Assembly: GCA_963703565.1 (NCBI GenBank)
Contig: CAVPEW010000042.1
Location: 33,327 to 97,326 of the forward strand
Reading direction: 5' to 3'
DNA length: 64,000 nucleotides
Origin: an uncultured Microthrixaceae bacterium
GTDB taxonomy: Bacteria; Actinomycetota; Acidimicrobiia; Acidimicrobiales; VFJN01
The notes under the pieces are model-generated. The model saw nothing but the letters and a program-made list of their open reading frames with translations, did not search any database and was not told the origin of the DNA. A program made the translations under genes and the position numbers. This document shows, piece after piece, positions 5,606 to 41,100 of the stretch. How positions within the stretch are numbered: the stretch's first letter is position 1; each line of letters begins with the position of its first letter.

Positions 5606-6899
5606 GTGTCCGCCACGGTCTCGTCGACGGTCAGGGTCGGGCTGCTCGGGTGCGGCACCGTCGGAGGCGCGCTGGTCGAGCTGATGGCGTCGCGTGGCGA
5701 CGCCATCACCGCCAGGACGGGCCTGCACCTCGAGCTTCTCCCGCGTGGCGGTGCGCGACACGTCCCGCTCCCGGCCGGGCGCGCTCGGTGCCGCGAAGGT
5801 CACCACCGACGCAGGGGCGCTCGTCGAGGACCCCGATGTCGACGTCGTCGTCGAGGCCATCGGCGGTGTCGAGCCGGCCCGAGAGCTGGTGACCCGTGCC
5901 CTGGCTGCTGGCAAGCCCGTGGTGACGGCCAACAAGGAGTTGCTGGCCACGGCGGGGCCCGAGCTGTTCGCGGCTGCCGACCGCGCCGGGGTCGACCTGC
6001 TGTTCGAGGCGGCCGTCGCTGGGGGGATCCCCCTGCTGAGGCCGTTGCGCGAGTCGCTGGTGGGCGAGCGCATCGCCCGGGTGACCGGCATCGTCAACGG
6101 CACGACGAACTTCGTGCTGACCCGGATGAGCGAGCAGGGCAGCACCTACGAGCAGGCCCTGGCGGAGGCCCAGCGTCTCGGTTACGCAGAGGCCGACCCG
6201 ACCGCGGATGTCGAGGGCCACGATGCCGCGGCCAAGGCCGCCATCCTGGCCACGATCGCCTTCGGCGTGCGCGTGGCCTCGGCCGACGTGTTCCGCGAGG
6301 GCATCTCGGGGGTGACCGCCGTCGACATCGCGTTCGCTGGGCGCCTCGGCTACGTCGTGAAGCTGCTGGCGGTTGCCGAGGACGACGGAACTACGACCGC
6401 CGTGCGGGTCCATCCTGCGATGGTGCCGACCACCCACCCGCTGGCCGCGGTCCGAGACAGCTTCAACGCGGTCTTCGTAGAGGGCGACGCCGTGGGAGAG
6501 CTGATGTTCTACGGGCGTGGCGCCGGCGGGTCGCCGACCGCGTCAGCGGTGCTCGGCGACCTCATCGACGCCGCCGCCAACCTCCGCCGGGGCACGCACG
6601 GATCGTTGGGCCAGCTCGGCCCTGCCCGCCTGCGCCCGATCGAGGAGCTGCAGTCCGCCTACTACCTGCGCCTCGAGGTGCGCGACCGCCCGGGTGTGCT
6701 GGCGCTGGTGGCCGGCGTGCTCGGGCGCCACGGGGTCTCGATCCGCTCCATGGAGCAGGAGGGCCTCGGTGACGAGGCGCGCCTGATCTTCATCACCCAC
6801 ACCGCCCGGGAGGCGGCGGTGCAGGCAACCCTGCGCGAGCTCGGCGACCTCGACGAGGTCGACCGCGTGGGGGCGATGGTGCGCGTCCTGGGCCCGTGA
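5606..6899 (+). pseudogene. hom: Homoserine dehydrogenase, frame broken by one extra base at about 5735-5741 (assembly error or pseudogene)
   Basis: The NAD-binding start VRVGLLGCGTVGGALVELM is in the frame of GTG 5606. The remainder (RVAVRD...TANKELLA...IVNGTTNF...ACT-like C-terminus) is in the frame of track ORF 5694..6899. Removing one base of GAGCTTCTCCC joins the two frames. Confidence 0.85.
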
Positions 6900-6930
6900 C
6901 CCCGCGCCCCGAAGCCGCCGCGGCCCGTTC

Positions 6931-8277
6931 GTGATGCGCTACGTGTCGACACGGGGCGCCGCCCCGTCGCTGGACTTCGGCGACGTGCTGCTCGAGGGGC
7001 TGGCGCGCGACGGCGGCCTCTACGTGCCCGAGGCGGTCCCCGCACTGGGTCCGGTCGACGCGGCCGCTTCCTACGCCGCGCTGGCGACCTCGGTGATGGC
7101 GCCCTACGCAACCGGCTTCGCCGGGCTCGCCGCGCACGTCGCCGACGCCTACGCCGGCTTCGACGACCCCGCCGTGTGCCCGATGGTCCGCCTCGCCGAC
7201 GGCCGTTGGGTCCAGGAGCTCTGGCACGGCCCGACCCTGGCGTTCAAGGACCTCGCCCTGCAGATCGTCGGCCGCCTGATGGACGCCGAGCTCGACCGTC
7301 GCGGCGACCGGCGCACCATCGTGGTCGCCACCTCGGGTGACACGGGCAGCGCGGCCATCGCCGCCTGCGTCGGGCGCGCCACCCTGGAAGTGGTCGTGCT
7401 GCACCCCGCCGGGCGGGTCAGCGACGTCCAGCGCCGCCAGATGACCACCGTGGACGCCCCCAACGTGCACAACGTCGCCGTCGAGGGGTCCTTCGACGAC
7501 TGCCAGGACCTGGTCAAGGCCCTCTTCTCCGACGAATCGCGCCGGGAGCGCTGCCGCCTGGGGGCCATGAACTCCATCAACTGGGGCCGGGTCCTCGCCC
7601 AGATCGCCTACTACGTCGACGCCACCCGCCGGGTCGGGGCGTGCGACGTGGTGGTGCCCACCGGCAACTTCGGCAACGTGCTCGCCGGCTGGTACGCCCG
7701 CGCGATGGGCGCGCCGATCGCCCGGCTGGTGATCGCCTCCAACCGCAACGACATCCTGCCCCGCTGGCTGGCCACGGGCACCCTTGCCGCCCAGGCCGTC
7801 CGCGAGACCCTGAGCCCCTCGATGGACATCCAGGTGTCGTCGAACCACGAGCGGCTCCTGTTCGAGCTGCTGGGCCGCGACGGCGCGGCCACCGCCGAGC
7901 TGGTGGATCGGTTCCGCTCGTCGGGCTCGGTCGAGGCGCCCGTGCCGGAGGGCTTCGCCGCCGGGCGCGCCGACGACCACGAGATCCTCGCGGAGATCGC
8001 AGCCGTAGCTCGGACCGGCTACCTCGCCGACCCCCACACCGCCGTCGGCCTGCACGTCGCGCGCACCCTCGGGCTCGGTGCCGAGCGCCCCGTCGTGTGC
8101 CTGTCCACCGCCCATCCCGCCAAGTTCCCCGACGCGGTCACGGCCGCCACCGGGTCGCCGCCCCCGGTGCCCGAACGCCTCGCCGCGCTGGCCGGGCTTC
8201 CCGAGCGCTACGAGGTCCTGCCCGCCTCGCTCGACGCTGTCGCCGCAGTGGTCGAGCGCTCCGCCCGCCCCGCCTGA
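6931..8277 (+). CDS. thrC: Threonine synthase
   Basis: 448 aa with MRYVSTRG...LYVPE at the N-terminus and the PLP-lysine motif LAFKDLALQ. It follows hom. The start is GTG 6931 or ATG 6934. Confidence 0.95.
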   Translation: MMRYVSTRGAAPSLDFGDVLLEGLARDGGLYVPEAVPALGPVDAAASYAALATSVMAPYATGFAGLAAHVADAYAGFDDPAVCPMVRLADGRWVQELWHGPTLAFKDLALQIVGRLMDAELDRRGDRRTIVVATSGDTGSAAIAACVGRATLEVVVLHPAGRVSDVQRRQMTTVDAPNVHNVAVEGSFDDCQDLVKALFSDESRRERCRLGAMNSINWGRVLAQIAYYVDATRRVGACDVVVPTGNFGNVLAGWYARAMGAPIARLVIASNRNDILPRWLATGTLAAQAVRETLSPSMDIQVSSNHERLLFELLGRDGAATAELVDRFRSSGSVEAPVPEGFAAGRADDHEILAEIAAVARTGYLADPHTAVGLHVARTLGLGAERPVVCLSTAHPAKFPDAVTAATGSPPPVPERLAALAGLPERYEVLPASLDAVAAVVERSARPA

Positions 8278-8358
8278 GCGCCCGCCCGGGCACTCGGGCC
8301 GACTCGTGCGGTTTGGGCGATCTAGTCTCAGGGCCGCTGCCAACATGAGGGGGAGATC

Positions 8359-9510
8359 ATGCAGACACGAGCAGCCATCCTTTGGGGGGCCAAGACCGAC
8401 TGGAGCGTCGAGGACATCGAGCTCGACGAGCCCAAGACGGGCGAGGTAAAGGTGAAGCTCGCGGCCTCGGGCCTGTGCCACTCCGACGAGCACCTCGTCA
8501 CCGGAGACATGGCAATGGACCCGGAGACAGCGGCGCTGGTGGACCTCGAGCAGTACCCGATCATCGGGGGTCACGAGGGCGCCGGCGAAGTCGTCGAGGT
8601 CGGTCCGGGCGTGACCAGCGTCAAGGTGGGTGACCACGTGACCCTGGGCTTCATCCCCTCCTGCGGCCGCTGCCCCTCGTGCGCACGAGGCCGCCAGCAG
8701 CTCTGCGACCTGGGGGCGTTCGCCCTCGCCGGTCGCCAGATCAGCGACATGACCGCTCGGCACCACGCCAAGGACGGGCGCGACCTCGGGATCATGGCCG
8801 GTCTGGGCACGTTCTCGCCCTACACCGTGGTGAACGAGGCCAGCGCCATCAAGATCGACGACGACATCCCGCTCGACCGGGCTGCGCTGGTGGGCTGCGG
8901 GGTCACGACCGGGTGGGGTTCGGCCATCTACGCCGCCGACGTGCAACCCGGTGAGATCGTCGTGGTGATCGGCATCGGCGGCATCGGGATGAACGCCGTG
9001 CAGGGCGCCGCCCTCGCCGGCGCCCGCTACGTCGTGGTCGTCGACCCCGTCGACTGGAAGCGCCAGGCCGCGATCGACACCTTCGGCGCCACCCACCAGG
9101 CGGCGTCGATCGAGGAGGCCCAGGCACTGGTGGGCGAGATCTCCTGGGGCACGATGGCCGACAAGGCGATCCTCACGCCAGGCGTGGCCACCGGAGACCT
9201 CGTGCAGCCGATGATGAGCCTGGTCGCCAAGGGCGGTCGCGCCGTGGTCACAGCGGTGGCTCCCATGTCGCAGCACACCATCTCGCTCGACCTGTTCGAG
9301 CTGACGTTGCAGCGCAAGGAGCTCGTGGGCTGCATCTTCGGCAACGCCAACCCGCGCCGCGACATCCCGAGGCTGCTGCGGCTCTACATGGATGGCAAGC
9401 TGAAGCTGGACGAGCTGGTCACGACCACCTACGACCTGGACGGCGTCAACCAGGGCTACCAGGACATGCGTGACGGCAAGAACATCCGCGGCGTGCTCAA
9501 CTACGCCTGA
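8359..9510 (+). CDS. Zn-dependent alcohol dehydrogenase, NDMA-dependent (mycofactocin-associated, Rxyl_3153-like) type
   Basis: 383 aa with GLCHSDEH and GHEGAG (Zn ligands) and GIGGIG (Rossmann fold). It lies immediately upstream of mftA, and GGGGGAG precedes its ATG. Confidence 0.85.
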   Translation: MQTRAAILWGAKTDWSVEDIELDEPKTGEVKVKLAASGLCHSDEHLVTGDMAMDPETAALVDLEQYPIIGGHEGAGEVVEVGPGVTSVKVGDHVTLGFIPSCGRCPSCARGRQQLCDLGAFALAGRQISDMTARHHAKDGRDLGIMAGLGTFSPYTVVNEASAIKIDDDIPLDRAALVGCGVTTGWGSAIYAADVQPGEIVVVIGIGGIGMNAVQGAALAGARYVVVVDPVDWKRQAAIDTFGATHQAASIEEAQALVGEISWGTMADKAILTPGVATGDLVQPMMSLVAKGGRAVVTAVAPMSQHTISLDLFELTLQRKELVGCIFGNANPRRDIPRLLRLYMDGKLKLDELVTTTYDLDGVNQGYQDMRDGKNIRGVLNYA

Positions 9511-9530
9511 CCCACCCGAGGAGACCACCG

Positions 9531-9656
9531 ATGACGATCACCGACCCCGCCGCTCCAGTCGACGAGCCCGTCGCAGTGGAGTCGGCCGAGGAGCTCGAGG
9601 CAGACGAGGTCCTGGTGGAGGAGATCTCCATCGACGGGATGTGCGGGGTCTACTGA
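9531..9656 (+). CDS. mftA: Mycofactocin precursor peptide
   Basis: Hand-translated 41 aa: MTITDPAAPVDEPVAVESAEELEADEVLVEEISIDGMCGVY. It has the diagnostic IDGMCGVY C-terminus. GAGGAG lies 7 nt upstream. It is too short for the ORF track. Confidence 0.9.
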   Translation: MTITDPAAPVDEPVAVESAEELEADEVLVEEISIDGMCGVY

Positions 9657-9660
9657 CCCC

Positions 9661-9915
9661 GTGGGCGCCCTCGAGCTCGACCCGAAGGTCGCCCTGCGGC
9701 CCGAGCCCTTCGGCGCCCTCGCCTACCACTACGGCACCCGCCGCCTCACCTTCCTGCGCTCGCCGGAGTTGGTGAAGCTGGTGGGCGAGCTCGCCGAGCA
9801 TGCCTCGATCGACGACGCGCTGGCCGCGTCGTCGATCGAGGCACGGCGTTGGCCGGCATTTCAAGCGGCCGTGGTCTCTTTGACCGATTCCGGATTCCTG
9901 AGGACCCGCGCATGA
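9661..9915 (+). CDS. mftB: Mycofactocin biosynthesis chaperone (PqqD-like RRE protein)
   Basis: 84 aa with LRPEPFGALAYHYGTRRLTFL, the PqqD/MftB pattern. It lies between mftA and mftC. Confidence 0.9.
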   Translation: MGALELDPKVALRPEPFGALAYHYGTRRLTFLRSPELVKLVGELAEHASIDDALAASSIEARRWPAFQAAVVSLTDSGFLRTRA

Positions 9916-11048
9916 CAACCCCCCTCGTCGATGACATGAAGAAGGGGCTCGACGCGCCCATCTGCTTGACCTGGGAGCTCACCTACGGCTGCAACCTGGC
10001 CTGCGTGCACTGCCTTTCGTCGTCGGGTCGGCGCGACCCCCGGGAGCTCGACACCGCCTCTGTCATGGGCCTGATCGACGAGCTCGCCGCCCTGCAGGTG
10101 TTCTACGTGAACATCGGCGGCGGCGAGCCCACCATCCGGGGCGACTTCTACGACATCGTCGACCACGCCGTGGCCAGCGGCGTGGGTGTGAAGTTCTCGA
10201 CCAACGGCTCCACCATCGACGCCACCCGCGCCCGACGCCTCGCCGGCAGCGACTACGTCGATGTGCAGCTCTCCATCGACGGCGCCACCGCCGCCACCAA
10301 CGACCCGATCCGCGGCGAGGGCTCCTACGCCACGGCCCGGCGGGCCATGGACAACCTCGCCGAAGCCGGCTTCGGCGCGTTCAAGATCAGCGTGGTGGTC
10401 ACGCGCACCAACATCGACGAGCTCGACGATCTCGAGGCTCTCGCGCGCCACTACGGCGCCCAGCTGCGCCTCACGCGCCTTCGTCCCTCGGGGCGTGGGG
10501 CCGGCGTGTGGGACCAGCTGCACCTGCTGTCCGGCCAGCAGGTCGATCTGTACCGGTGGCTGCTGGACCGGCCCGACGTGCTGACCGGCGACTCGTTCTT
10601 CCACCTCAACGCCCTGGGCGACTCCCTGCCCGGGCTGAACCTGTGCGGGGCGGGCCGCGTCGTGTGCCTCATCGACCCGTTGGGCGACGTGTACGCCTGC
10701 CCGTTCGTGCTGCACCCCGAGTTCCGCGCCGGCAGCGTCCTCGACGACGGCGGGTTCACTGCGGTGTGGCGCGACAGCGAGCTGTTCACCGACCTGCGCC
10801 GGCCCACCTCGCCCGGCGCCTGCGCCTCCTGCGGCAGCTACGACGCCTGCCAGGGCGGGTGCATGGCAGCCAAGTTCTTCACGGGCCTGCCCCTCGACGC
10901 GCCCGATCCCGAGTGCGTGCACGGCCACGGCGAGCGGGCCCTGGCCGGGGTCGCCGCCGACCTCGTCGCTCCGAAGGGCCCGGACCACTCCAGCGGCCGG
11001 CGACCCGTGCCTGTCAGTCTCGGGCGCGCCCCCGGCGGACGCTCCTGA
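9912..11048 (+). CDS. mftC: Mycofactocin radical SAM maturase (SPASM domain)
   Basis: CNLACVHC is a CxxxCxxC cluster. The C-terminal Cys-rich SPASM region contains CGAGRVVCLIDPLGDVYACPF and CASCGSYDACQGGC. ATG 9912 overlaps the mftB stop (ATGA). Confidence 0.95.
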   Translation: MTTPLVDDMKKGLDAPICLTWELTYGCNLACVHCLSSSGRRDPRELDTASVMGLIDELAALQVFYVNIGGGEPTIRGDFYDIVDHAVASGVGVKFSTNGSTIDATRARRLAGSDYVDVQLSIDGATAATNDPIRGEGSYATARRAMDNLAEAGFGAFKISVVVTRTNIDELDDLEALARHYGAQLRLTRLRPSGRGAGVWDQLHLLSGQQVDLYRWLLDRPDVLTGDSFFHLNALGDSLPGLNLCGAGRVVCLIDPLGDVYACPFVLHPEFRAGSVLDDGGFTAVWRDSELFTDLRRPTSPGACASCGSYDACQGGCMAAKFFTGLPLDAPDPECVHGHGERALAGVAADLVAPKGPDHSSGRRPVPVSLGRAPGGRS

Positions 11049-11049
11049 A

Positions 11050-11082
11050 GTCGGACGGCGCGGCTCCGCCCCGCCGTCCGAC
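11050..11082 (+). terminator. Perfect 11-bp stem / 11-nt loop hairpin directly after the mftC stop (no U-tract)
   Basis: GTCGGACGGCG (11050-11060) pairs with CGCCGTCCGAC (11072-11082). It may be an attenuator or an RNA-stability element rather than a full terminator. Confidence 0.35.
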
Positions 11083-11148
11083 ATCGATCGCGATGAGACA
11101 ACTCAGGATTCTGTCTCGACGTTCCCGGCCTGCGAGAATCGCCCAGGC

Positions 11149-13111
11149 ATGACCCAGATGCGCCTGCTCGACCCGATCCAGTGGGGACCGCTACCGGCGC
11201 GCAACCGGGTCGTGTTCGGGCCACACGAGACGAACCTGGGCCGGGGTCGTGCCCTGTCCGATCGTCACGTCGCCTACTACGAGCGCCGAGCCGCCGGCGG
11301 GGCGGGCGTGGTCGTGGTCGAGGAGGCCTCCGTCCACGCCAGCGACTGGCCCTACGAGCGCGCCCCGCTCGCCGCCGAGGCCGCAGCGGGTTGGGCCGCC
11401 ATCGCCCGCGCCGTCCGTGCCCACGGAGCCCTGGCACTGGCCGCGCTGGGCCACTCCGGCGGGCAGGGGTCGAGCGCGTACAGCCAGGCACCGCTGTGGG
11501 CGCCGTCGAGGGTGCCGGAGGTCAACAGCCGCGAGGTCCCCAAGTGGATGGAGCGCGCCGACATCGGCGAGGTCGTCGACGGCTTCGCAGCCGCGGCGCG
11601 CGCCGCGGTGCGTGCCGGCTGCGACGGCGTGGAGGTCAACGCCGGCCAGCACAGCCTGATCCGTCAGTACCTGTCGGGGCTGACCAACCACCGCGCCGAC
11701 GACTACGCCGACCGGGTCCGCTTCGCACGTGAGGTGCTCAGCGCGGTGCGCGACGCCGTGGGCTCCGACGCGGTGGTCGGCCTGCGGCTCTCGTGCGACG
11801 AGCTGGCCCCCTGGGCCGGGCTGACGCCCGAGATGGCCGTGGAGGTGGCCCGCGAGCTTCGCCCCCCTCGTCCACCACATCACCGTGGTGCGCGGCTCGA
11901 TCTACTCGACCGGCGCCACCCGGCCCGACGGCCACACGCCCCCCGGTTTCAACATCGAGCTGGCCCGCGAGGTGCGCGCGGCGCTGGCCCCGGAGGTCAT
12001 CGTGGTCCTGCAGGGGTCGATCGTCGATCCGGCCATGGCCGACGACGCAGTGGCAAGTGGTGCGGCCGACGCGGTGGAGATGACCCGGGCCCTGCTCGCA
12101 GACGCGGAGCTGGTCACGAAGGTCCGAGCCGGGGAGGCCGAGCGGGTCCGCCCCTGCCTGTTGTGCAACCAGACCTGCCAGGTGCGCGACGCTCGCAACC
12201 CGATCGTGACCTGCGTGGTGGACCCCCGTACCGGCCACGAGCTCGACGACGACGACGCGGACCACCCGCCGAGCGCCACCCGGCCCGGCGACGTGCTGGT
12301 CGTGGGGGCCGGTCCGGCCGGGCTCGAGGCGGCCCGGGTCGCCGCGTTGCGAGGCCACCGTGTGCGGGTGGCCGAGCGCCTCGACCGCGCCGGCGGCGCC
12401 GTGCCCGTCGCGGCCCGCGGCGCGGGCCGCTCCCGCCTGGGAGCGCTCACCGACTGGTTGTCGGCGGAGTGCGCGCGGCTGGGGGTCAAGGTGGAGACCG
12501 GCCACGAGGTGACCGCCGACGACGTCGCCGCACACGACGGCCCGGTCGTGCTCGCCACCGGTTCGCGCGCGGGCGAGCGGACCTATTCCGTCGAAGACGA
12601 CGCCCGGCTGCGCACCGCGGCTCAGGTGCTGGACCCCGAAGGTCCCGATGCCGGTGACGCTCCGCCGTCGCCGGTGCTGGTTTGGGACCCCATCGGCGGC
12701 CCGATAGCGGTGTCGGTGGCCGAGACGCTGCGCGCACGCGGGGCCGAGGTGGCCATCGCCACCCCCGACCTGATCGTGGGCAACGAGCTGTCCCGCTCGG
12801 GCGACCTGGCCCCTGCCAACGCCCGGCTTCAGTCCGCGGGGGTCAGGATCGAACGTCGCTGCCTGCTGCGCCAGGTCGGCCCCGAGGGCGCCGTGCTCGA
12901 GGACCGCTTCACCGGGCAGCGCCGGACGGTGCCGGCGGCCACCGTGGTCGACGCCGGGCACCGGTTGCCCGAAGACGCCCTCTGGCTCGAGCTCGCCCCA
13001 CCCGAAGGCCCCTCGGCGGGCACGGTTCCCGCAGCCGGCGACGCCGTGGCGCCACGCACCATCCTCGAAGCGGTTCTCGAGGGTCGCCGGGTCGGGTTGG
13101 GTCTGGGCTGA
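11149..13111 (+). pseudogene. Mycofactocin-system FadH/OYE family oxidoreductase (paralog 1), frame broken by one extra base at about 11858-11867
   Basis: The OYE-like FMN domain (VVFGPHETN, HSGGQGSS, NAGQHSLIRQYLS) is in the frame of ATG 11149. The continuation HITVVRGSIYS...CLLCNQTC...VLVVGAGPAGLEAA is in the frame of track ORF 11885..13111. The join is at GAGCTTCGCCCCCCTC. Confidence 0.85.
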
Positions 13112-15072
13112 TGCGCTCCACCCGCTACCGGCACCTGTTCACCCCCCTACGGGTCGGCCCGGTCGTGGTGCCCAACCGGATCGTGTTCTCCGCGCACCTC
13201 ACCAACTACGCGGCCGAGGGTCTGCCCACCGACCAGCACGCCGCCTACTACGCGGCGCGCGCCGCGGGCGGTGCCGGGCTCATCATCACCGAGGAGCACT
13301 CCACCCACCCCACCGATTGGCCCTACGAGAAGCTGATCCACGGCTTCCACCCCGAGGTGGTGCCCGGGTACCGGCGCATCACCGATGCCGTGCACCGTCA
13401 CGGCACGCCGATCTTCGCCCAGATCAACCACAACGGCGGGCAGGCCAGCTCCATGTTCTCCCGCCTCCCGGTGTGGGCGGCGTCGGCGGTGGCCGACCCC
13501 CTCTTTCGCGAGGTGGCCCACGCCGTCGACCAGCGCGAGATCGCCGAGATCGTTGCCGGCTACGCCCTCGTGGCAGAGCACTGCCGCGCCGGTGGCTTCG
13601 ACGGGATCGAGCTGCAGTGCTCGCACAGCTCCATCGTGCGCGGGTTCCTCTCGCCCGCGGTGAACCGTCGCACCGACCGCTACGGCGGCCCGCTGGCCGA
13701 TCGGGCCCGCATCCTGCTCGAGATCGTCGCCGCGGTGCGCGAAGCGATCGGGCGCGACCTGGCTCTGGGGGTGCGTCTGTGCGGGGACGAGCTGATCGAG
13801 GGTGGCACGACCATCGACGACGCCGTCGAGGTCGCCCGCATGGTGCAGACCCAGGGTCTGACCGACTACGTCAACACCTCGATCGGAGTGGCCACCGCGT
13901 CGCTGTTCATGATCGAGGCGTCGATGCAGGTCCCGCCCGGCTACGCGATGTTCATCCCCTCGGCTCTGCGCAAGGCGATCGACCTGCCCGTCATCGGCGT
14001 GGGCCGGTTCAAGGACCCGGTGCAGGCCGACCGGGCGCTCGAGGAGGGCCACTGCGACCTGGTGGGCGTGGTCCGGGGCCAGATCGCCGATGCCGACTTC
14101 GCCGCCAAGGCCCACGCTGGGCGCACCGAGGACATCCGGCTGTGCCTGTCGTGCAACCAGGAGTGCGTCGGGCGCATGGGGCTGAACCGCTGGCTGGGAT
14201 GCATCGAGAACCCGCGCACCGGTCGCGAGGCCACCGCCCCTGCGGTCGTGCGGCGCGAGCGTCCTCGCCGGGTGGTGGTGGTCGGAGCCGGCCCGGCCGG
14301 CCTGCAGGCGGCGCTGGCGGCCGCCGAGGCCGGCCACCGGGTGACGGTGCTCGAGCGCCGCGCCGAGGCCGGCGGGCAGGTCCGTCTGGCGGCGAGCGTG
14401 CCCAGCCGGGCCGAGCTCGGTGACCTGGTCCGCAACCAGGTGCACGCCTGCGCCCGCCTCGGCGTCGAGATCCGCTACGGGGTCGATGCCGACGCGGCGG
14501 CGGTCACCGCGCTGGCGCCGGAGGTGGTCGTGGTCGCCACCGGCGCCGAACCCGCCCGACCGTGGTGGGCGCCAGCCGATGCCGAGCGCGTCGTCGACGT
14601 GGTCGAGGTGCTCGAGGGCCGGGTCCAGCCCTCCGGGCGGGTCCTCGTGGTCGACGAGCTGGGCTTCCACCACGCCACCTCGGTGGCCGAGCTGCTCGCC
14701 GACCGGGGCGCGCAGGTGACCGTGGCGGCTCCCGGGATGGTCGTGGGACAGGACCTGGGCATAACCCTCGACATGGAGCACTGGCAGATCAAGGCGGCAG
14801 CGAAGGGCATCGAGCAGCTCGTGGAGCTCGTGCCGATGGCCTTCGACCCCGCTGCCGGACGCCTCACGGTGCAGCACCACCCCACCGGCACAGAACGCCA
14901 CCTCGACGCGGACTGGATCGTGCTGGCGGTCCCCGCGTCACCGCTCGAGGCGCTCTACCACGAGCTGGCGGGCCTCCCCGGCCTCGAGGTGCACCGCGCC
15001 GGCGATTGCGTCGCGCCGAGGCGGGCTCACGCCGCGGTGGTCGAGGGTCAGCGGGTCGGGGCGGCGTTGTGA
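13111..15072 (+). CDS. Mycofactocin-system FadH/OYE family oxidoreductase (paralog 2)
   Basis: 653 aa from ATG 13111. It has an OYE/FMN barrel (IVFSAHLTN, NHNGGQASS, QCSHSSIVRGFLSP), the CLSCNQEC Fe-S motif, and the FAD/NAD fold VVVVGAGPAGLQAA. The first 143 codons of the track ORF are out-of-frame overlap with the upstream gene. Confidence 0.9.
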   Translation: MRSTRYRHLFTPLRVGPVVVPNRIVFSAHLTNYAAEGLPTDQHAAYYAARAAGGAGLIITEEHSTHPTDWPYEKLIHGFHPEVVPGYRRITDAVHRHGTPIFAQINHNGGQASSMFSRLPVWAASAVADPLFREVAHAVDQREIAEIVAGYALVAEHCRAGGFDGIELQCSHSSIVRGFLSPAVNRRTDRYGGPLADRARILLEIVAAVREAIGRDLALGVRLCGDELIEGGTTIDDAVEVARMVQTQGLTDYVNTSIGVATASLFMIEASMQVPPGYAMFIPSALRKAIDLPVIGVGRFKDPVQADRALEEGHCDLVGVVRGQIADADFAAKAHAGRTEDIRLCLSCNQECVGRMGLNRWLGCIENPRTGREATAPAVVRRERPRRVVVVGAGPAGLQAALAAAEAGHRVTVLERRAEAGGQVRLAASVPSRAELGDLVRNQVHACARLGVEIRYGVDADAAAVTALAPEVVVVATGAEPARPWWAPADAERVVDVVEVLEGRVQPSGRVLVVDELGFHHATSVAELLADRGAQVTVAAPGMVVGQDLGITLDMEHWQIKAAAKGIEQLVELVPMAFDPAAGRLTVQHHPTGTERHLDADWIVLAVPASPLEALYHELAGLPGLEVHRAGDCVAPRRAHAAVVEGQRVGAAL

Positions 15073-18633: not shown

Positions 18634-19419
18634 ATGACCGACACGAAGCCCGGTGGGGGAGCCGGGTCCGCGGGTCACCCGGGCGGACGCCCGGTGTCGA
18701 CGCGCAGGAGCCGGCTCCCAGGTGAACCCCCCACCGCCCCACCCGAGGGGCGCCTCGAGACGCTGTGCTGGCCCGACGTCGACGACCGGGCGGGATCGCT
18801 GCTGCTCGTGGTGCCCCTCGGCGCGACCGAGCAGCACGGGCCGCACCTGCCCTTCGCCCTGGACTCGCTGGTGGCAACCACCTTGGCGTGGGGCCTCGCG
18901 GCAGCACGCGACGACGTGGTCGTGGCACCGACCCTGCCCTTCGGCTCCAGCGGCGAGCACGCCGGCTTCGCCGGGACCCTCTCGATCGGACAGGCCGCCC
19001 TGGAGCTGGTGGTGACCGAGCTGGTCCGCTCGGCCGACGCCTTCGCCGGGGTAGTGCTGGTCAACGGCCACGGCGGCAATGCCGAGCCCCTGGCGGCAGC
19101 CCAGCGGACCCTGGCCGAGGAGGGCCGCAGGGTCCTGGTGTGGTCTCCGAGAGCAGACGGTGACATCCACGCGGGCCGAACCGAGACCTCCCTCGCCCTG
19201 GCCCTCGACGCCGACGGCGTGAGGCTCGATCGCGCCGAGGCCGGCGATGTGCACACGCTGTCTGCGTTGATCGAGCGCCTGCGCAGTGAGGGGGTCCGGG
19301 CAGTGTCGCCCAACGGCGTGCTCGGCGACCCCAAGGGCTCGTCGGCAACCGAGGGGCGCATCCTCGTGGACGCTCTGGTGGCCGACCTCGTGCGCAAGGT
19401 CCGCACCTGGGCTCGTTGA
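18634..19419 (+). CDS. mftE: Mycofactocin precursor peptide peptidase (creatininase family)
   Basis: LVVPLGATEQHGPHLP, GSSGEHAGFAGT, NGHGGN and HAGRTETS are creatininase-fold motifs. The start is uncertain: ATG 18634 or an in-frame GTG about 60 nt downstream. Confidence 0.85.
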   Translation: MTDTKPGGGAGSAGHPGGRPVSTRRSRLPGEPPTAPPEGRLETLCWPDVDDRAGSLLLVVPLGATEQHGPHLPFALDSLVATTLAWGLAAARDDVVVAPTLPFGSSGEHAGFAGTLSIGQAALELVVTELVRSADAFAGVVLVNGHGGNAEPLAAAQRTLAEEGRRVLVWSPRADGDIHAGRTETSLALALDADGVRLDRAEAGDVHTLSALIERLRSEGVRAVSPNGVLGDPKGSSATEGRILVDALVADLVRKVRTWAR

Positions 19420-20217
19420 CACCCCCGGCGCCGGTCGCGGTGCTGACCGGCGCGGCACGGGGCATCGGTGCTGCGACCGCGCGGGGCCTGGCCGCGGACG
19501 GGTGGAGCCTGGTCCTCGTCGACCGCTGCGCCGACGACCCGGCCCTCGGCTACCCCTTGGCCACCCGGGCCGAGCTCGACGCTGTGGCGGCCGAGTGCGG
19601 TGGGCCGAAGCGGGCGGTCCCGGTGGTCGCCGACGTGCGTGACCAGCGGGCCATCGACGGGGCCGTCGCCCTGGCCGTGGAGCGCTTCGGCGGCCTCGAC
19701 GCCGCCGTGGCCGCCGCCGGGGCGCTCGTGGGCGGCCCGGTCGCCTGGGACACCGACGACGCCGCCTGGGCGACGATGGTGGGGGTGAACCTGGAAGGGC
19801 CGTGGCGCCTGGCGCGGGCGGCGGTCCCCGCGCTGCTGTCGCGCCCGGCTCCCAGGCAGGGTCGGGTCGTGGTGATCGCGTCGTCGGGCGGCCTGGTCGG
19901 GCTTCCCCGCATGGCGGCCTACAGCGCCGCCAAGCACGGCGCGATCGGGCTGGTGCGCAGCCTGGCGGCCGAGCCTCGGCGAGGAGGGGGTGACGGTGAA
20001 CGCGGTCGCGCCCGGGTCGACGGGCACCGCCATGCTCGACGCGAGCGCCGCCGTCTACGACCTGGCCTCGCCCGACGAGTTCGCGGTGCACCACCTGCTC
20101 GGCCGGCTGCTGGGCCCCGACGAGGTGGCCGCCGCCGTGCGCTGGCTGTGCAGCCCGGCGGCCAGCGGGGTGACCGGTGCGGTGGTGCCCGTCGACGCCG
20201 GCATGACCGCGCGGTGA
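19416..20217 (+). pseudogene. Mycofactocin-coupled SDR family oxidoreductase, frame broken by one extra base at about 19974
   Basis: TGAARGIG, the insert DRCADDPALGYPLATRAELDAV, and YSAAKHG are in the frame of 19416. The C-terminal part VTVNAVAPGSTGTAM...VPVDAGM is in the frame of track ORF 19990..20217. The join is at GAGCCTC. Confidence 0.8.
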
Positions 20218-21704
20218 GGGCAGGCGCGCTCGGCAGGCCGCCCCGTCCGGCTCGGGACCCGCCGGGAGTGCCTCGGCCCTCGGACCCGCCGCCACCGTTG
20301 CCGGCGCGCTGGCGCGTCGTGCTCGACCACCGAACCAGGCGCGACCGCACCGGCACGGTGGTCTCGGGGGGCCACCCCTGGCGCATCCTGCGCCTCACCC
20401 CCTCCGGCGCCCGACTGCTCGCTCGCCTCGCCGCCGGTGAAGCGGTGTCCACCGATGCGAGCGGTGCGCTGGCGCGGCGCCTGGTCGAGGGCGGCCTGGC
20501 CCACCCGCGCCCACCCGCCGCCGGGCCCTTCGTGGCGCGGGAGCGACCGAGCGTGGTGGTGCCGGTGCGTGGCGAGCCCGCTGAGCTGGACACCACGCTG
20601 GACTCGCTCGGCGCGGTGCGCGAGGTCGTGGTCGTCGACGACGCTTCGCTCGACGCCGGAGGCATCGCCGCCGTGGCGCGCCGCCACGGGGCGACGCTGG
20701 TGCGCCACGAGGTCACCGGCGGCCCGGCCGCCGCACGCGAGGCGGGCTGGCGGCGCTGCGAGGGACCGGTCGTGGCCTTCGTCGACGCCGGGGTCGAGCT
20801 GCCCGCACGCTGGTACGAGCCTCTCGGCGACCACCTCGGCGACCGCAGCGTGGTGGCGGTGGCGCCCCGGGTTCGGCCCACGGCGCGCCCGGGCACGCCA
20901 CGTTGGCTGGCGCGGTACGAGGCCCGCCGTTCGCCCCTCGACCTGGGTGGCCGCCCGGCCGAGGTGCGCCCGGCGTCGCCGGTGGCGTACGTGCCCACCG
21001 CGACCCTGGTGGTGCGTCGCAGCGCCTTGGAGGAGGTGGGTGGGTTCGACCCGGCACTGCGCTACGGGGAGGATGTCGACCTGGTCTGGCGCCTGGTCGG
21101 TGCCGGGGGCCGGGTCCGCTACGAGCCAAGGGTGGTGGTGCGTCACCCGGTGCGCACCTCCCTGCGGGCACTGGTCCTGCAGCGGGCCGGCTACGGCTCG
21201 GCGGCGGGGCCGCTGGCCAGGCGCCACGGCTCGGCTGTGGCGCCGGCACGGATCTCACCCGGCGCCGGCGCCGGCTGGTGGCTGGTCGCCTCGGGCGCCC
21301 CGCGGGCAGCGGGGGTCGTGATCGGGGTGTCCAACGCCCCTCTGGTACGGCGCCTGGCCTCGCTGCCCCACCCGGTGCGCACCGCCGCCCGCCTCGGGCT
21401 GGCCGGCCAGATGTCGGCCGGTCGACAGCTCGTCGAGGCGGCCCGCAGGGTCTGGGCTCCCGGCCTGGCAGTGGCCGCCGCGCTCGGTGGCCGCCGCACC
21501 CGCGGGGTCGTCGCCTCGGTGTGGGTGTTGCCACCGCTGTGCGAGGCGCTCGCCCGTCGCCCCGAGCTGGGGCTGGCCCGGTGGATCGCCCTGCGTGCCG
21601 TGGACGACATCGCCTACTGCGCGGGCGTCTGGCGAGGCTCGTGGGCGGCGCGCACCACGGTCGCGCTGCGTCCGGTTCGGCCCCGCCCGAACCCGGCGCA
21701 GTGA
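20214..21704 (+). CDS. mftF: Mycofactocin system glycosyltransferase
   Basis: The MftF-type N-terminus is WRVVLDHRTRR..GTVVSGGHPWRILRLTPSGARLL. The GT2 core contains VVVPVRGE, VVVVDDAS and GEDVDLVWR. The GTG start overlaps the SDR stop (GTGA). This gene is the last two thirds of the chimeric track ORF 19416..21704. Confidence 0.85.
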   Translation: MRAGALGRPPRPARDPPGVPRPSDPPPPLPARWRVVLDHRTRRDRTGTVVSGGHPWRILRLTPSGARLLARLAAGEAVSTDASGALARRLVEGGLAHPRPPAAGPFVARERPSVVVPVRGEPAELDTTLDSLGAVREVVVVDDASLDAGGIAAVARRHGATLVRHEVTGGPAAAREAGWRRCEGPVVAFVDAGVELPARWYEPLGDHLGDRSVVAVAPRVRPTARPGTPRWLARYEARRSPLDLGGRPAEVRPASPVAYVPTATLVVRRSALEEVGGFDPALRYGEDVDLVWRLVGAGGRVRYEPRVVVRHPVRTSLRALVLQRAGYGSAAGPLARRHGSAVAPARISPGAGAGWWLVASGAPRAAGVVIGVSNAPLVRRLASLPHPVRTAARLGLAGQMSAGRQLVEAARRVWAPGLAVAAALGGRRTRGVVASVWVLPPLCEALARRPELGLARWIALRAVDDIAYCAGVWRGSWAARTTVALRPVRPRPNPAQ

Positions 21705-28397: not shown

Positions 28398-28857
28398 GTG
28401 GCTCTCGGCGAGATCGTGCGCGAGGCGCTCGAGCTGCAGGTGCTCGAGGTCGAACCGGAGCGGGCAGCCGAGGCGATCGGACGGGGCGTGACCTCCCACG
28501 GGGCGGTGCCGGTGGCAGAGGCGCTGCTCGACGCCGCGGCGGTCGCCCTGCGGCGGATGGTGTCGGTCACCGACGCCGCGCTCGACCAGGCCGAGCTGCT
28601 GTCGCGCCTGGCCCTGGACGGCGCGGTGCCCGAGCACCGTCTCGAGCTTCCTGGGCACCATGCTCGGCGCGGCTGCGGCCACAGCCGGCGGGGTGCGTCC
28701 ACCCACCGATGCCCTGGGTGCGCGCCTGGGCGATCAGGACCTGCTCTTCGGTGCCTGGCTGGCGCTGCTGACCGCCGTCCGGGTGGCGGCCCTGGGGATG
28801 GAGGACACCGAGGCGGCCGTGGTGGAGGAGGTGGTGGCCGCCATCGAGTCGTTCTGA
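28398..28857 (+). pseudogene. Hypothetical protein (about 153 aa if repaired), frame broken by one extra base at about 28648-28650
   Basis: Frame 28398 reads sensibly up to ...AVPEHRLEL and then turns Arg/Gly-rich. Track ORF frame 28660 continues LGTMLGAAAATAGG...VVEEVVAAIESF and stops before a strong hairpin. The join is at GAGCTTC. Confidence 0.45.
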
Positions 28858-28864
28858 GCCGGGC

Positions 28865-31967: not shown

Positions 31968-32079
31968 GTGGATCCTGCCTCCCCCCGGAGCCCGGCTTCG
32001 TCGGGGTCCGCGGCTCGCGCAACGCTACGAACGCCGCTGCGTCCGGTGGTGGATGCCGCTGTGGTCGGGCTCCCGCGGT

Positions 32080-32709: not shown

Positions 32710-32711
32710 CG

Positions 32712-34100: not shown

Positions 34101-34267
34101 CGTGCCCCCTGCGGGAACGGGAGCGCGGGGCGACCGACGACCCGAGGGTCGCCCGACGCTCGATCGGGTTGGGATGGGCAACGTCGCAGGCCGCGGTCGG
34201 TCACCGATGGCCATTCAACCCGGGGCGCCCCCACCGGGCGCGGATGGGCGCTCCTAGGGTTCCGGGG

Positions 34268-34696: not shown

Positions 34697-34707
34697 GCCC
34701 GCTCGGG

Positions 34708-35634: not shown

Positions 35635-35880
35635 GGCGGGCGGTGCTCCCTCGTTGGTTGTGGCGCCGAGGGACGGGGCCCCGAAACGGGCCCGTGGGCC
35701 GCGTCGGCCGTCCTCCCCCTCGTGACGGCGGTCATCTGGATCGCTGTGCAACGTCTAGCGGTCGGCCGGGCGTTCGGCAACCGGCAACGAGGCCGAACCC
35801 GGCCTAGGGTCGCATCCGGGGGCGCCCCCTGGGCGCCGTGCAGCGGCGCCACGTGAGAGGCCTGGACCGGAAGGGGACCG

Positions 35881-37149
35881 GTGAGCACCGACGACGAGAT
35901 CCGCGAGCAGGTGGCCGGCTTCGCGGCCGAGCAGTGGGACCCGACCCTCACCGTGCGCGAGTGGTGGGCGCGGTTGGGTCGTTCCGGCTGGGCCTTCCCG
36001 ACCTGGCCAACCGGGTGGTTCGGGCGCGGCCTGGGCCTCGAGCAGGGTGGAGTGGCCCGCCGCGCCCTCGTTCAGGCCGGCGTGCTGGGCCCCCCCGGTG
36101 GGCTCGGCCAGTCGCTGGCCGCCCCCACGCTGTTGGCCCATGCGACCGAGGAGCAGAAGGGCTGGTGGATCGAGGCGCTGGCCACCGGCGCCGAGGCCTG
36201 GTGCCAGTTCTTCAGCGAGCCCGGTTCGGGGTCCGATCTGGCCAGCCTGGCCACCAGGGCCGTGCGCGACGGCGACGAGTGGATCGTCAACGGGCAGAAG
36301 GTGTGGACCTCGGGCGCCCGACAGGCGGTCAGGGGCATGCTGCTCGCGCGCACCGACCTCGACGCACCCAAGCACCGGGGCATCAGCTACTTCATCATCG
36401 ACCTCGACCAGCCCGGCATCGAGATCCGCCCGCTGAAGCAGATGAACGGCGCCGCCACCTTCAACGAGGTGTTCTTCACCGATGCCCGCGTGCCCCACGC
36501 CAACCTGGTCGGCGAGCTGAACGGCGGGTGGGGCGTGGCGCTCACCACGCTCGCCTACGAGCGCTCCGGGATCGGAGGGCTCGCGTCTGCCGCCGCTCCT
36601 GGGGAGAAGGCCGGTTTCCTGGACCTCGGAGCTGGCGACGTGCTCGCCGGCCGGGCCGGGGGCGGCGCGGCGGAGTCGATGACGAGCTTCTTCGGCCAGG
36701 CCAACCGCCTGACCCGTCAGGCCGCGGAGGCTGCAGGCCGCACCGATGACCCGGTCCTGCGCCAGGGCGTGAGCCGCATCCACGCCATGCACGAGGTCAC
36801 CCGGCTCACCCGCGCCCGTGCCGAGGCCGCGGTCGTGGCCGGCGGGCGGCCGGGCCCGGAGGGATCCACGGGCAAGCTCGCCGCCGCCGTCGACATGCAC
36901 GCGGCGCGCGATGTCGCCCTGTCGGCTCTCGGAGCGCACGGCATGCTCGCGGGCGACGATGCCCCCCTCGGCGGTGCGGTCACCACCATGGCCCTGTCGG
37001 CCCACGGCATCTCGATCGCCGGCGGGACCAACGAGATCCAGCGGAACATCCTGGGTGAACGGGTCCTCGGGCTCCCCAAGGAGCCCTCGGTCGATCGTGA
37101 CGTGCCCTTCCGGGACCTGCGCGTGGGCACCCAGCGACCCGCCGACTGA
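35881..37149 (+). CDS. Acyl-CoA dehydrogenase family protein (copy 1)
   Basis: FSEPGSGSDLASL, NGQKVWTSGA and GGTNEIQRNILGERVLGLP. Confidence 0.9.
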   Translation: MSTDDEIREQVAGFAAEQWDPTLTVREWWARLGRSGWAFPTWPTGWFGRGLGLEQGGVARRALVQAGVLGPPGGLGQSLAAPTLLAHATEEQKGWWIEALATGAEAWCQFFSEPGSGSDLASLATRAVRDGDEWIVNGQKVWTSGARQAVRGMLLARTDLDAPKHRGISYFIIDLDQPGIEIRPLKQMNGAATFNEVFFTDARVPHANLVGELNGGWGVALTTLAYERSGIGGLASAAAPGEKAGFLDLGAGDVLAGRAGGGAAESMTSFFGQANRLTRQAAEAAGRTDDPVLRQGVSRIHAMHEVTRLTRARAEAAVVAGGRPGPEGSTGKLAAAVDMHAARDVALSALGAHGMLAGDDAPLGGAVTTMALSAHGISIAGGTNEIQRNILGERVLGLPKEPSVDRDVPFRDLRVGTQRPAD

Positions 37150-37184
37150 CACACGCCGAGGGCCCGCGGGCCGAGGGAGGAGCG

Positions 37185-38132
37185 ATGGCCATCAGCCTGG
37201 GCGCCCACGTGGGCCAGCAGAACATGACCATGCACGACATGAGAGCCACCTGGGCCCGCCTCGACGAGGCCGGCATGGACTGGATCTCCGCGTGGGACCA
37301 CTTCTACGAGGCGCCCCCGGCGGGGGGCACGGTGGACCACTTCGAGGCCGTCGCCACCCTCGGCGCCCTGGCGGCCGACACCAGCCACGCCCGCATCGGC
37401 TGTCTGGTCTTCTACGTCGGGTACCGGAACCCGGCGATGCTGGCCAAGGTCGCCACCACGCTCGACCACATCTCGGGCGGTCGCTTCGAGCTGGGCCTGG
37501 GGGCCGGATGGCACGAGTGGGAGGCCCGGGCCTACGGCTACGACTTCCCGCCGGTGGGCACCCGGATCGACATGCTCGCCGAGGCGCTGCCGCTGGTGCG
37601 CTCGCTGCTGACCCAGCCGCGCACCACCTTCGAGGGCCGCCACTTCCGCGCCGAGGACGCGTCGTGCCTGCCGGCGCCGGTCCAGGCCCGCCTGCCCATC
37701 TGGGTCGGGGGAACCGGCGAGCGGCGCACCCTGCGCCTGGTGGCGGGCCACGCCGATGGCTGGAACGCCGCCTACGTGTCGGCTGCCGAGTTCGGTCGCC
37801 TCTCGGGGGTCCTCGACCAGTGGTGCGACCGCGAAGGCCGCGACCGTAGCGAGGTCCGCCGCTCGGTGAACCTGATGTTCATGCTCTCCGCCGACGCCGC
37901 CGGCGCGGCTCGCGTCGAGGCGGACCTGCGCGCCCAGTGGGGCGAGGCGGCCGACAGGGTCACCCAGGGGGCGCTGGTGGGCACGCCCGACGACGCGATC
38001 GACGCGGTGTGCGCCTACGCCGAGGCGGGCGCGCAGGAGGTCAACGTGGCCCTGCGGGCTCCGTGGGACAGCGAGGCCCTCGAGGCATACCTGACCCACG
38101 TCGTGCCAGCGGTACGCGCCAGGTTGGACTGA
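37185..38132 (+). CDS. LLM-class (luciferase-like) F420-dependent oxidoreductase
   Basis: 315 aa with LDHISGGRFELGLGAGW and PIWVGGTGERRTL, the TIGR03560-like pattern. Confidence 0.8.
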   Translation: MAISLGAHVGQQNMTMHDMRATWARLDEAGMDWISAWDHFYEAPPAGGTVDHFEAVATLGALAADTSHARIGCLVFYVGYRNPAMLAKVATTLDHISGGRFELGLGAGWHEWEARAYGYDFPPVGTRIDMLAEALPLVRSLLTQPRTTFEGRHFRAEDASCLPAPVQARLPIWVGGTGERRTLRLVAGHADGWNAAYVSAAEFGRLSGVLDQWCDREGRDRSEVRRSVNLMFMLSADAAGAARVEADLRAQWGEAADRVTQGALVGTPDDAIDAVCAYAEAGAQEVNVALRAPWDSEALEAYLTHVVPAVRARLD

Positions 38133-38167
38133 GGGCGCGACGGGCGCGCTGGCCACACTGGAAGGGC

Positions 38168-41100
38168 ATGGCCCCGACCCGATCAGAGCTACGTCACGCC
38201 CTGGCCCAGGCCAGCCTGGCCGACGAGGCGCGCCTGGCCCGTCAGCTGCGCCGGGCCCGCCCCGACGAGCTCGAGGGCCTCGCCGACCGCATCGAGGTGG
38301 CCCGTGCCGCGGCCGCCGCCCGTCGCGCCGCCGTGCCCGAGGTGCGCTACCCGCCCGAGCTGCCGATCTCGCAACGGGTGGCCGAGCTGCGCGCGGCGCT
38401 CGCGGCGCACCAGGTGGTGGTGGTGGCGGGCGAGACGGGGTCGGGGAAGAGCACGCAGCTGCCCAAGATCTGCCTGGACGCCGGGTGCGGGGTGCGGGGC
38501 ATGATCGGCCACACCCAGCCACGCCGCCTGGCGGCACGCGCGGTGGCCGAGCGGGTCGCCGACGAGCTCGGGGTCGAGCTGGGCGGACGGGTCGGCTACG
38601 CCGTGCGCTTCGCCGACCGGGTCGGCGAAGCGACGCTGGTCAAGGTGATGACCGACGGGCTGCTGCTCGCCGAGCTGCGCAGCGACCCCGACCTGCGCCG
38701 CTACGACACGATCATCCTCGACGAGGCCCACGAGCGCAGCCTCAACATCGACTTCCTGCTCGGCTACCTCGCCCGGCTGTTGCCCCGCCGCCCCGACATG
38801 CGCCTGGTGGTGACATCGGCCACGATCGACACGGCGAGGTTCGCCGAGCACTTCGGCGGAGCGCCCGTGATAGAGGTGTCGGGCCGTACCTGGCCCGTCG
38901 AGCTGCGCTACAGGCCCTTCGACGGCGACGGCCGCGACCAGACCGACGCCGTGGTCGACGCGGTGCGCGAGCTGGCCACCGAGGGACCCGGCGACGTGCT
39001 GGTCTTCTGCAGCGGCGAGCGCGACATCCGAGATGCCGCCGTCGCGCTCGAGCGGGCTCGTCTGCCCCACACCGAGGTGCTGGCCCTGTACGCCCGGCTG
39101 CCCACCGCCGAGCAGCACAAGGTGTTCGCCCCCCACACCGGTCGTCGCGTCGTGCTGGCGACCAACGTCGCAGAGACCTCGCTGACCGTGCCCGGCATCC
39201 GCGGCGTCGTCGACCCCGGCACGGCGCGGATATCGCGCTACAACCGCCGCACGAAGGTCCAGCGCCTGCCGATCGAGCCGATCAGCAGGGCCTCGGCCGA
39301 CCAGCGCGCCGGGCGCTGCGGGCGCGTGGGGCCCGGCACCTGCATCCGCCTCTACTCGCCCGAGGACCTCGAGGCCCGCGCCGAGTTCACAGAACCCGAG
39401 ATCCTGCGCACCAACCTGGCCTCGGTCGTGCTGTCGATGGCCGCGCTGGGCCTGGGCGACGTGGAGGACTTCCCCTTCCTGGACCCACCCGAGGCGCGCG
39501 CGGTGGGCGACGCCGTTGCGCTGCTCGTCGAGCTGGGAAGCTCTCGAAGCGGTGTCGGTCCACCACGCTGGCAAGGCCACGGGAGGCCCCCGGTTGACCG
39601 CGCTGGGGCGATCGCTGTCGCGCCTTCCCGTGGATCCCCGCCTCGGGCGGATGATCCTGGCCGCGGAGGCCAACGGATGCGTCGAGGAGGCCATCGTGGT
39701 GGCCGCGGGGCTGACCGTGGCCGATCCCCGCCGGCGCCCCGAGGGCGACGAGGCCAGAGCGGACCAGCTCCACAGCCGGTTCGACGTCGCCGACTCGGAC
39801 CTGTCGTCGATCCTGGCGCTGTGGCGCCACCTGGCGCGCACCCAGCGCGAGCTCGGCTCGAGCGCCCTGCGCCGACGCCTGCGGGACGAGCTGCTGGACC
39901 ACCAGCGGGTGCGCGAGTGGCAGGATCTGGTCCGTCAGCTGCGCGAGGTCGTCCACGAGCTGGGCATCGCTCGTTCCAGCCGCCCCGACGACGCCGACGC
40001 GCTGCACCGCAGCGTGCTGGCCGGCCTGCTGTCGCAGATCGGCATGCGCGACCCCGACGGGCGCGAGTACCGGGGTGCGCGCCAGTCCCGCTTCGTGCTG
40101 GGTCGCTCGTCGGTGCTGCGTGGCCGCGAACCGGCGTGGGTGATGGCCGCCGAGCTGGTCGAGACCGACCGGTTGCGGGCGCACCGTGCGGCGAAGATCG
40201 ATCCCGCCTGGGTCGAACCCCTGGCCGCGCACCTCGTGCGCGTCGCCCACGGCGAGCCCCGCTGGGACGCCCAGCGCGGCACGGCGGTGGTCGACGAGCG
40301 CGTGACCCTTCACGGGTTGCCGGTTGTCACGGCGCGGCCCGTCGCCTACGAGCGGATCGATCCGGCCGGCGCGCACGCCCTGTTCGTGCGCCACGCCGTA
40401 CGCCACGGCGACGGCCTGGCCCGCCGCGCCTTCCACGACGCTCTCGACGAGGCGCTCGACGAGCTGGCCCGCCTCCAGGACCGGCTCCGGCGCGCCGACC
40501 TGGTGCCCGACGACGACGAGCTCGTCGACCTGCTCTCGTCGCGCCTGCCGGTCTCGATCACCTCGCGGACGCGGTTCGAGCGTTGGTGGCGCGGCGCCGC
40601 CGACTCCGAGCGGGCAGCGCTGGCTCCCAGCGTCGGCGAGCTGCTCGGCGGTCGGGTCGAACCGGCGGAGCTGGCCGGGCTCCCCGACCGCCTCGACCTC
40701 GGCGGTGGCGTCACCGCCGAGCTCACCTACCTGTTCGACCCCGGCGAGCCCGCCGACGGCGTGGTGGCGCACGTGTCGCTGGCCGCCCTGGGAGCCCTCG
40801 ACGCCGACCGTGTCGCGTGGGGGGTGCCCGGCCGCCGCCACGAGCTGGTCACAGCCCTGCTGCGCGCGCTGCCCAAGGACCTGCGCAGGCGCCTGGGCCC
40901 CGCCCCCGAGGTTGCCGCCGAGGTGCTGGCGGAGATCGACCCCGGCGACGGCGCCCTGGCAGTCGTGCTCGCAGCGGCGCTTCGCGACCGCTTCGACGTG
41001 CCGGTGGAGGCCGCCCACCTGGACCCGGAAGCTGCGCCCGCCCACCTGCGCCCGATCGTGCAGGTCGAGGACCCCGGCGGGGAACCGCTCGCGTGGGGCC

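Follow-up and report, generated by a model that had tools for sequence, protein, structure and literature searches.

In high-G+C Actinomycetota, the hexamer GAGCTC is a documented specificity of 5-methylcytosine (m5C, also written 5mC) methyltransferases, recorded for M.Sgr13350I, a Patulibacter genome, and a compost metagenome-assembled genome (MAG), with methylation on the C at position 4, GAG(m5C)TC (PMC11954522). Modification-induced errors in R10.4.1 reads are mainly C-to-T and G-to-A substitutions (PMC11610603). For two strains of Propionibacterium freudenreichii with 5mC in GRGCYC, a methylation shown by digestion to include GAGCTC, one report gives 114-126 residual errors in native R10.4.1 assemblies and 2 errors for a strain without the GRGCYC motif, a contrast of about 50-fold; there the authors ascribe the errors of native DNA to modifications, and reads derived from the polymerase chain reaction, when added, removed the errors (PMC11649196). 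Here, we analyzed a 64,000-nt stretch (hereafter the window) of contig CAVPEW010000042.1 from the Acidimicrobiia MAG GCA_963703565.1, with a G+C content of 74%, in which five genes are each interrupted by one surplus base inside GAGCTC. These five frameshifts are probably consensus errors in a long-read assembly, most likely made from native DNA by Oxford Nanopore sequencing, and not lesions in the organism.

Frame breaks and placement of the surplus base

Exactly five frame breaks were detectable in the window, all of the +1 type with one surplus base each. Every break coincides with a heptamer that sits between two overlapping open frames of one gene, the downstream frame always being +1 relative to the upstream frame, and the lesion is in each case GAGCTC with one internal base doubled (GAGCTTC three times, GAAGCTC once, and GAGCCTC once). 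All five lie on the plus strand. Site 1 is the GAGCTTC at 5732..5738 in hom (gene 5606-6899), with the extra base among 5736-5738 and most likely a T. Site 2, GAGCTTC at 11854..11860, falls in a gene for a fadH/OYE-type 2,4-dienoyl-CoA reductase (11149-13111) and has its extra base among 11858-11860, and site 3, GAGCCTC at 19971..19977, falls in a short-chain dehydrogenase (SDR) gene (19416-20217) with an extra C at 19974 or 19975. Site 4 is the GAGCTTC at 28644..28650 in a gene for a conserved 152-aa protein of unknown function (28398-28857), with an extra T at 28648 or 28649. Site 5 is GAAGCTC, the reverse complement of GAGCTTC, at 39537..39543 in hrpA (38168-42071), where an extra A occupies 39538 or 39539. 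The original prediction, which was made from the sequence alone, had given the same five heptamers at these positions.

Once one base is removed, hom, fadH, the SDR gene, and hrpA encode full-length proteins, and Pfam domains cross the former junctions: NAD_binding_3 (15-134) in hom, Oxidored_FMN (6-328) in fadH, adh_short_C2 (12-264) in the SDR, and the HA2/OB/DUF3418 series in hrpA. The repaired site-4 gene encodes 152 aa without any Pfam match; it has 654 homologues, many of exactly 152 aa, with identity up to 77% and coverage of 99-100%. The domains across the junctions and the 152-aa homologues therefore indicate that all five are real genes with real frame breaks. The G+C content at third codon positions (GC3) is 0.92-0.99 on either side of the breaks in the five genes, and identity to orthologues is 60-79% on both sides, with a single lesion of a single kind in each gene. 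The genes thrC and thrB, which adjoin the broken homoserine dehydrogenase gene hom, are intact. Accordingly, the earlier description of five otherwise undecayed genes, each one base from full length, was borne out, and gene decay was rejected on the same grounds: one lesion per gene, all of one kind, GC3 preserved on both sides, and full-length domains after one-base removal. Programmed ribosomal frameshifting and transcriptional slippage were also rejected, since the orthologues and homologues of the broken genes are encoded in a single frame, neither a homopolymer nor an X XXY YYZ heptamer is present at the sites, and GAGCTTC is not slippery.

Around each site, neither frame meets a stop codon for 342 to 2,886 nt, and with open frames of this length at this G+C content the localisation must rest on homology. 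The closest relatives in the genome collection are Acidimicrobiia MAGs with 77-79% amino-acid identity, many of them long-read MAGs named 'MFD…bin'. Because the best relative reaches only 79% amino-acid identity, orthologous DNA is unable to show the motif directly, and protein alignments were used to show the site positions. Orthologue proteins from related loci were aligned to the unrepaired window without use of the motif, and the frame switches fall at 11852-11865 (fadH) and 19973/19975 (SDR gene). Additionally, every single-base deletion within 14 nt of each site was enumerated and the resulting peptides were compared with homologue residues. The deletions compatible with the homologues were 5736-5738, 11858-11860, 19974-19975, 28648-28651, and 39538-39539.

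At site 1, the family pattern is L-E-[VLI]-[AT]-[RK]-VAVR, and only deletion of 5736, 5737, or 5738 fits it (LELSRVAVR); a deletion in the adjoining C run yields LELLRVAVR, against the pattern. At site 2, the orthologues have A, V, or L at the key position, with ARELAP in one orthologue, and taking the surplus base from the C6 run at 11862-11867 would place Arg there. The peptide AAELG of the three closest orthologues of the SDR is obtained only by deleting 19974 or 19975, and the homologue pattern PEHR[LI]ELL[GA] at site 4 fits deletion of 28648-28651. At site 5, the homologues have ELGA[LIM], and ELGAL results only from the loss of one A (39538 or 39539); loss from the G run at 39535-39537 produces ELEAL in place of the conserved residues. 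The hrpA coding signal changes frame at about 39535, and the homologue search for this gene used a 415-aa sub-query with matches of up to about 1.75 times the query length, which are thus fragments in which the junction is still readable. The placement of every break in GAGCTC with a doubled internal base, with the compatible deletions inside the heptamers, was thereby upheld, and the suggestion that a neighbouring C or G run might be the culprit at sites 1, 2, and 5 was contradicted by the homologues.

At sites 1, 2, and 4, removal of the T or of the neighbouring C gives the same protein; at site 4, a second assembly identifies the T (see below). CTT accounts for 1.5% and CTC for 38.4% of Leu codons (10,442 codons of intact genes), which favours T by about 25 to 1 and agrees with the description of CTT as a rare codon. 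Repair restores GAG CTC (Glu-Leu), as had been proposed, at four sites; the repaired hrpA hexamer reads GGA GCT CTC (Gly-Ala-Leu). As the hexamer lies outside the Glu-Leu frame in hrpA, the breaks track the hexamer at the DNA level and not a pair of codons. Three copies of GAGCTTC and one of GAAGCTC are reverse complements, and four sites therefore represent the same double-stranded lesion; the GAGCCTC of site 3 doubles the central C. The extra base is always the C at position 4 or a T directly 3' of the position-4 C, on one strand or the other.

Some features of the affected genes are of separate interest. The reductase gene of site 2 is the first of two tandem FadH/OYE-type 2,4-dienoyl-CoA reductase paralogues (11149-13111 and 13111-15072), and the pair is syntenic in many Acidimicrobiia MAGs (loci L002-L081). 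The frameshift in the SDR gene joins the SDR N-terminus in-frame to the downstream gene (approximately 20214-21704), forming a 762-aa open frame from 19416 to 21704 that gene callers might annotate as a fusion protein. The 152-aa family encoded at 28398-28857 has more than 650 homologues, mostly in MAGs of Acidimicrobiia and other actinobacteria, and the motif LALDGAVPEHR[LI]ELL is invariant among the homologues examined; a few JGI records call it a 'type III secretion system FlhB-like substrate exporter', a label that looks doubtful.

Association with GAGCTC in the window

The window contains 62 intact copies of GAGCTC and 25 heptamers derived from it by internal duplication, and the coding phase changes at exactly five of these 25. 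Five of 67 GAGCTC sites (approximately 7%) are thus affected, in line with the earlier remark that intact GAGCTC is very common and only a subset of sites is hit. GAGCTTC also occurs naturally and in-frame in imuB, as had been noted, although at 59879 and not at 59877.

The association of the breaks with one hexamer is non-random. In a look-elsewhere simulation, five random 10-nt intervals were drawn, and any hexamer restorable by dropping a duplicated base was allowed; 3 of 200,000 draws shared any such hexamer (P about 1.5e-5), and the five observed sites have one restorable hexamer in common, GAGCTC only. The original prediction had proposed a genome-wide test for association of GAGCTC with frameshifts; within the window, all five breaks are at the motif. 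The related hexamers GGGCCC (73 copies), GAGCCC (62), and GGGCTC (59) are similarly common, and their 194 sites carry no break (P about 0.001). These siblings free of breaks excluded the wider BanII-type motif GRGCYC as the specificity.

We also scanned the whole window for coding signal in GC3 that leaves a frame well before its stop codon. Only the five genes were recovered, the other matches being antisense shadows. An apparent sixth frame change at the GAAGCTC at 51993 was dismissed as noise, because codon position 2 holds its phase and a 910-aa open reading frame (ORF) is continuous there. Same-strand abutments at 45750, 27250, 48950, and 42700 were likewise rejected as frameshifts, since stop and start codons lie at the transitions and the additional signals are shadows of the antisense strand.

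The deposited record and a second assembly

All five sites lie in the public 126,620-bp contig (NCBI, ENA) that is the source of the window. Its annotated products are broken accordingly: hom is represented by 384 aa (P0121, from the GTG at 5745), fadH only by a 408-aa C-terminal fragment (P0363), and the 152-aa protein by a 65-aa C-terminal fragment (P0362). The broken products at sites 1, 2, and 4 indicate that the frameshifts were deposited with the record and were not introduced into the window.

The same organism was found in the Logan k-mer assembly of run ERR12036780, where five contigs, together spanning 13.6 kb of the window, show only 10 differences from it. At site 4, contig L083 reads CTCGAGC-TCCTGG with an intact GAGCTC and encodes exactly the 152-aa protein predicted by repair (P0361). 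The extra base at this site is therefore absent from the second assembly, and L083 confirms directly that the surplus base is a T. Exact look-ups of the products starting with M, aimed at sites 2, 3, and 5, found matches in the source record only; close to site 5, hrpA is accompanied by no complete gene of small size.

Two of the 10 differences lie inside GAGCTC. One is the T of site 4, and the other is a T-to-A change at position 5 of the intact GAGCTC at 57477..57482, which contig L087 reads as GAGCAC. GAGCTC-derived sites make up 0.68% of the compared bases, and the presence of two differences among them has P = 0.002. The change in L087 would replace Glu by Val in a minus-strand gene resembling acyl-CoA dehydrogenase genes. 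Three further differences are deletions of CG in (CG)3, one of them at the very end of contig L001; the two that were checked, at 36345 and 4526, disrupt frames that are open in the window. The 2-bp difference at 36345 was accordingly rejected as an error of the window and belongs to the k-mer contig. Three more are G-to-A changes in a CGCG context, again on the side of the k-mer contigs. A C-to-G difference at 42317 (window GCGCAGCTGG, contig L086 GCGGAGCTGG) lies in no recurring motif and would change Ala to Gly if the ORF at 42304-43053 is read.

Strain-type single-nucleotide polymorphisms (SNPs) were not apparent over the 13.6 kb, and nearly all differences recur in specific contexts. Given the lack of ordinary strain SNPs and the G-to-A error type, ERR12036780 appears to be a long-read run, most likely nanopore. 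It is also probably the read set from which the MAG was built. The disagreements in a CGCG context (4526, 4729, 29574, 30611, 36345, and 41101), all on the side of the k-mer contigs, hint that this organism modifies another motif as well, one of the CGCG or GCGCGC type.

Origin of the extra bases and comparison with known systems

The original prediction had preferred an error of consensus building or basecalling, specific to a methylated motif in long-read data, over five independent pseudogenes. The occurrence of all breaks at one hexamer and the intact site 4 in the second assembly support this choice. In the mechanism that we propose, the organism would methylate GAGCTC, probably as GAG(m5C)TC, and the modified base would disturb basecalling at and beside the methylated C on whichever strand is read. 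At five of the 67 sites, the assembler or polisher might then have resolved conflicting reads as an extra base, either a T immediately 3' of the modified C (GAGCTTC, or GAAGCTC where the opposite strand is involved) or a duplicate of that C (GAGCCTC). Insertions could arise if reads with a C-to-T miscall (GAGTTC) were aligned with GAGCTC as a deleted C plus an inserted T and the consensus kept both. GAGCCTC could arise from a miscall of the neighbouring T, as seen at 57481. The project behind the closest MAGs, from which the window may or may not come, was Nanopore-only, using Flye and one round of Medaka 1.8.0 without short-read polishing (PMC12313526).

Several observations weigh against this explanation. 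At site 1, contig L082 carries GAGCTTC with the same extra T as the window, so that the insertion is either present in most reads or real. As ERR12036780 probably represents the same reads, the Logan contigs provide an independent algorithm and not an independent chemistry, and a literature search for the platform of this run gave no confirmation. The search for a GAGCTC-specific methyltransferase gene, another check that had been proposed, came out negative: a scan of the 64-kb window for methyltransferase motifs found none. There is no clear avoidance of GAGCTC (62 copies present, with 79 expected under a maximal-order Markov model), 62 of the 67 sites are unaffected, and no extended sequence context separating these from the affected ones was visible. 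The error type also fits poorly, in that the five lesions are insertions and changes of the C-to-T or G-to-A type were seen only in the k-mer contigs; in the published description of modification-induced errors, indels are not highlighted (PMC11610603).

Some of these points would suit a bias of the basecaller or polisher at GAGCTC itself, whether modified or not, with no part played by methylation. The extra base appears at only five of 67 sites, the errors documented for methylation are substitutions and not insertions, the methyltransferase scan of the window was negative, and the (CG)n deletions in the second assembly are repeat-type errors for which methylation is not needed. We nevertheless regard such a bias as unlikely, because the motif coincides exactly with a palindromic site of Type II methyltransferases known from actinobacteria, no break falls in the related GGGCCC, GAGCCC, and GGGCTC, the insertions always coincide with or adjoin the C known to be methylated, and a literature search found no report of a context error at GAGCTC in unmodified DNA. 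Ordinary homopolymer indels or programmed frameshifting with GAGCTC nearby by accident might be considered in view of the C6 run adjoining site 2 and the short G or C runs near sites 1, 3, and 5. This explanation has almost no credibility, as orthologue residues exclude the C6 and G3 runs, the extra base lies in TT, CC, or AA doublets, and a chance association with one hexamer has the very small P value given above.

Alternatively, the insertions may be real lesions, five recent pseudogenes produced by a motif-targeted mutational process such as self-restriction at GAGCTC with subsequent error-prone end joining, or defective repair of the methylated C. The extra T of site 1 in both assemblies speaks for this, as does the position of the extra T, which coincides with the SacI-type cleavage point, GAGCT^C. 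This is very unlikely: it requires five inactivations in approximately 60 genes, including that of homoserine dehydrogenase beside intact thrC and thrB, no gene has a second lesion, codon bias is normal, and such a mutational process is undocumented. Moreover, the second assembly of this organism has an intact GAGCTC at site 4, and the two assemblies differ by a substitution at another GAGCTC (57477), which points to read error. In its most specific form, in which the insertions mark a GAGCTC-targeted process in this Acidimicrobiia lineage, as scars of SacI-type self-restriction or of insertion-prone repair of GAG(m5C)TC, the idea is highly improbable; if true, a restriction-modification system would be knocking out genes of its own host at the sequences it recognises. 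A mixture is conceivable as well, in which some insertions (e.g., site 1) are real variants and others (e.g., site 4) are errors of the consensus or derive from a strain assembled together with this one. Sites 1 and 4 do give opposite answers in the second assembly, and the source is a metagenome. Strain-type SNPs are absent over 13.6 kb, however, nearly all differences recur in specific contexts, and a GAGCTC-specific cause would still be needed for both classes of site, which makes the mixture less economical; we give it very little weight.

Under the explanation by consensus error, the pattern is a property of the assembly, and the organism itself almost certainly carries all five genes intact. 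Its biological interest is therefore low, and its importance lies in quality control: at approximately 7% of the GAGCTC sites in this record, an extra base breaks the reading frame. Should the remainder of the genome resemble the window, many genes would be wrongly split, truncated, or fused, and annotation pipelines would list them as pseudogenes or fragments. Errors linked to modification in long reads may thus take the form of insertions, beyond the substitutions described so far, and the pattern can be recognised in the assembled sequence alone, where it hints at the methylation motif of the organism. Many hrpA matches from long ENA contigs (P0241, P0243, P0247, and P0250) are fragments with Arg/Pro-rich out-of-frame tails. 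Long-read MAG records therefore appear to contain frameshifted hrpA genes commonly, and the error motif may differ from organism to organism.

Compared with known systems, the pattern described here is closest to the modification-induced systematic errors of the Hammerhead study (PMC11610603), with which the work of Lohde et al. 2024 (PMC11610573) on R10.4.1 reads and assemblies may be grouped. In the Hammerhead study, errors recur at a short methyltransferase target motif, survive long-read polishing, and depend on the strand read, and the published G-to-A type matches the differences of the k-mer contigs at CGCG. The published errors are substitutions, whereas those in the window are frame-breaking one-base insertions at approximately 7% of motif sites. 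P. freudenreichii offers a second parallel as a high-G+C actinobacterium with a 5mC motif covering GAGCTC; in the available portion of that report, the errors are not mapped onto the motif, and the specificity in the window is GAGCTC alone and not GRGCYC (PMC11649196). Long-read homopolymer errors similarly produce one-base indels and apparent frameshifts in otherwise intact genes, but they lie within runs of four or more identical bases, whereas the base doubled in the window would stand singly in the true sequence; the nearby C6 and G3 runs are excluded by the homologues. Finally, the GAG(m5C)TC methyltransferases of the SacI and M.Sgr13350I type recognise the same hexamer in high-G+C Actinomycetota and environmental MAGs, and the position-4 C that they modify is at or beside the extra base found here (PMC11954522). 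Unlike in those systems, the window holds no such gene and methylation of its GAGCTC sites is a presumption, one suggested by the position of the extra bases relative to this C.

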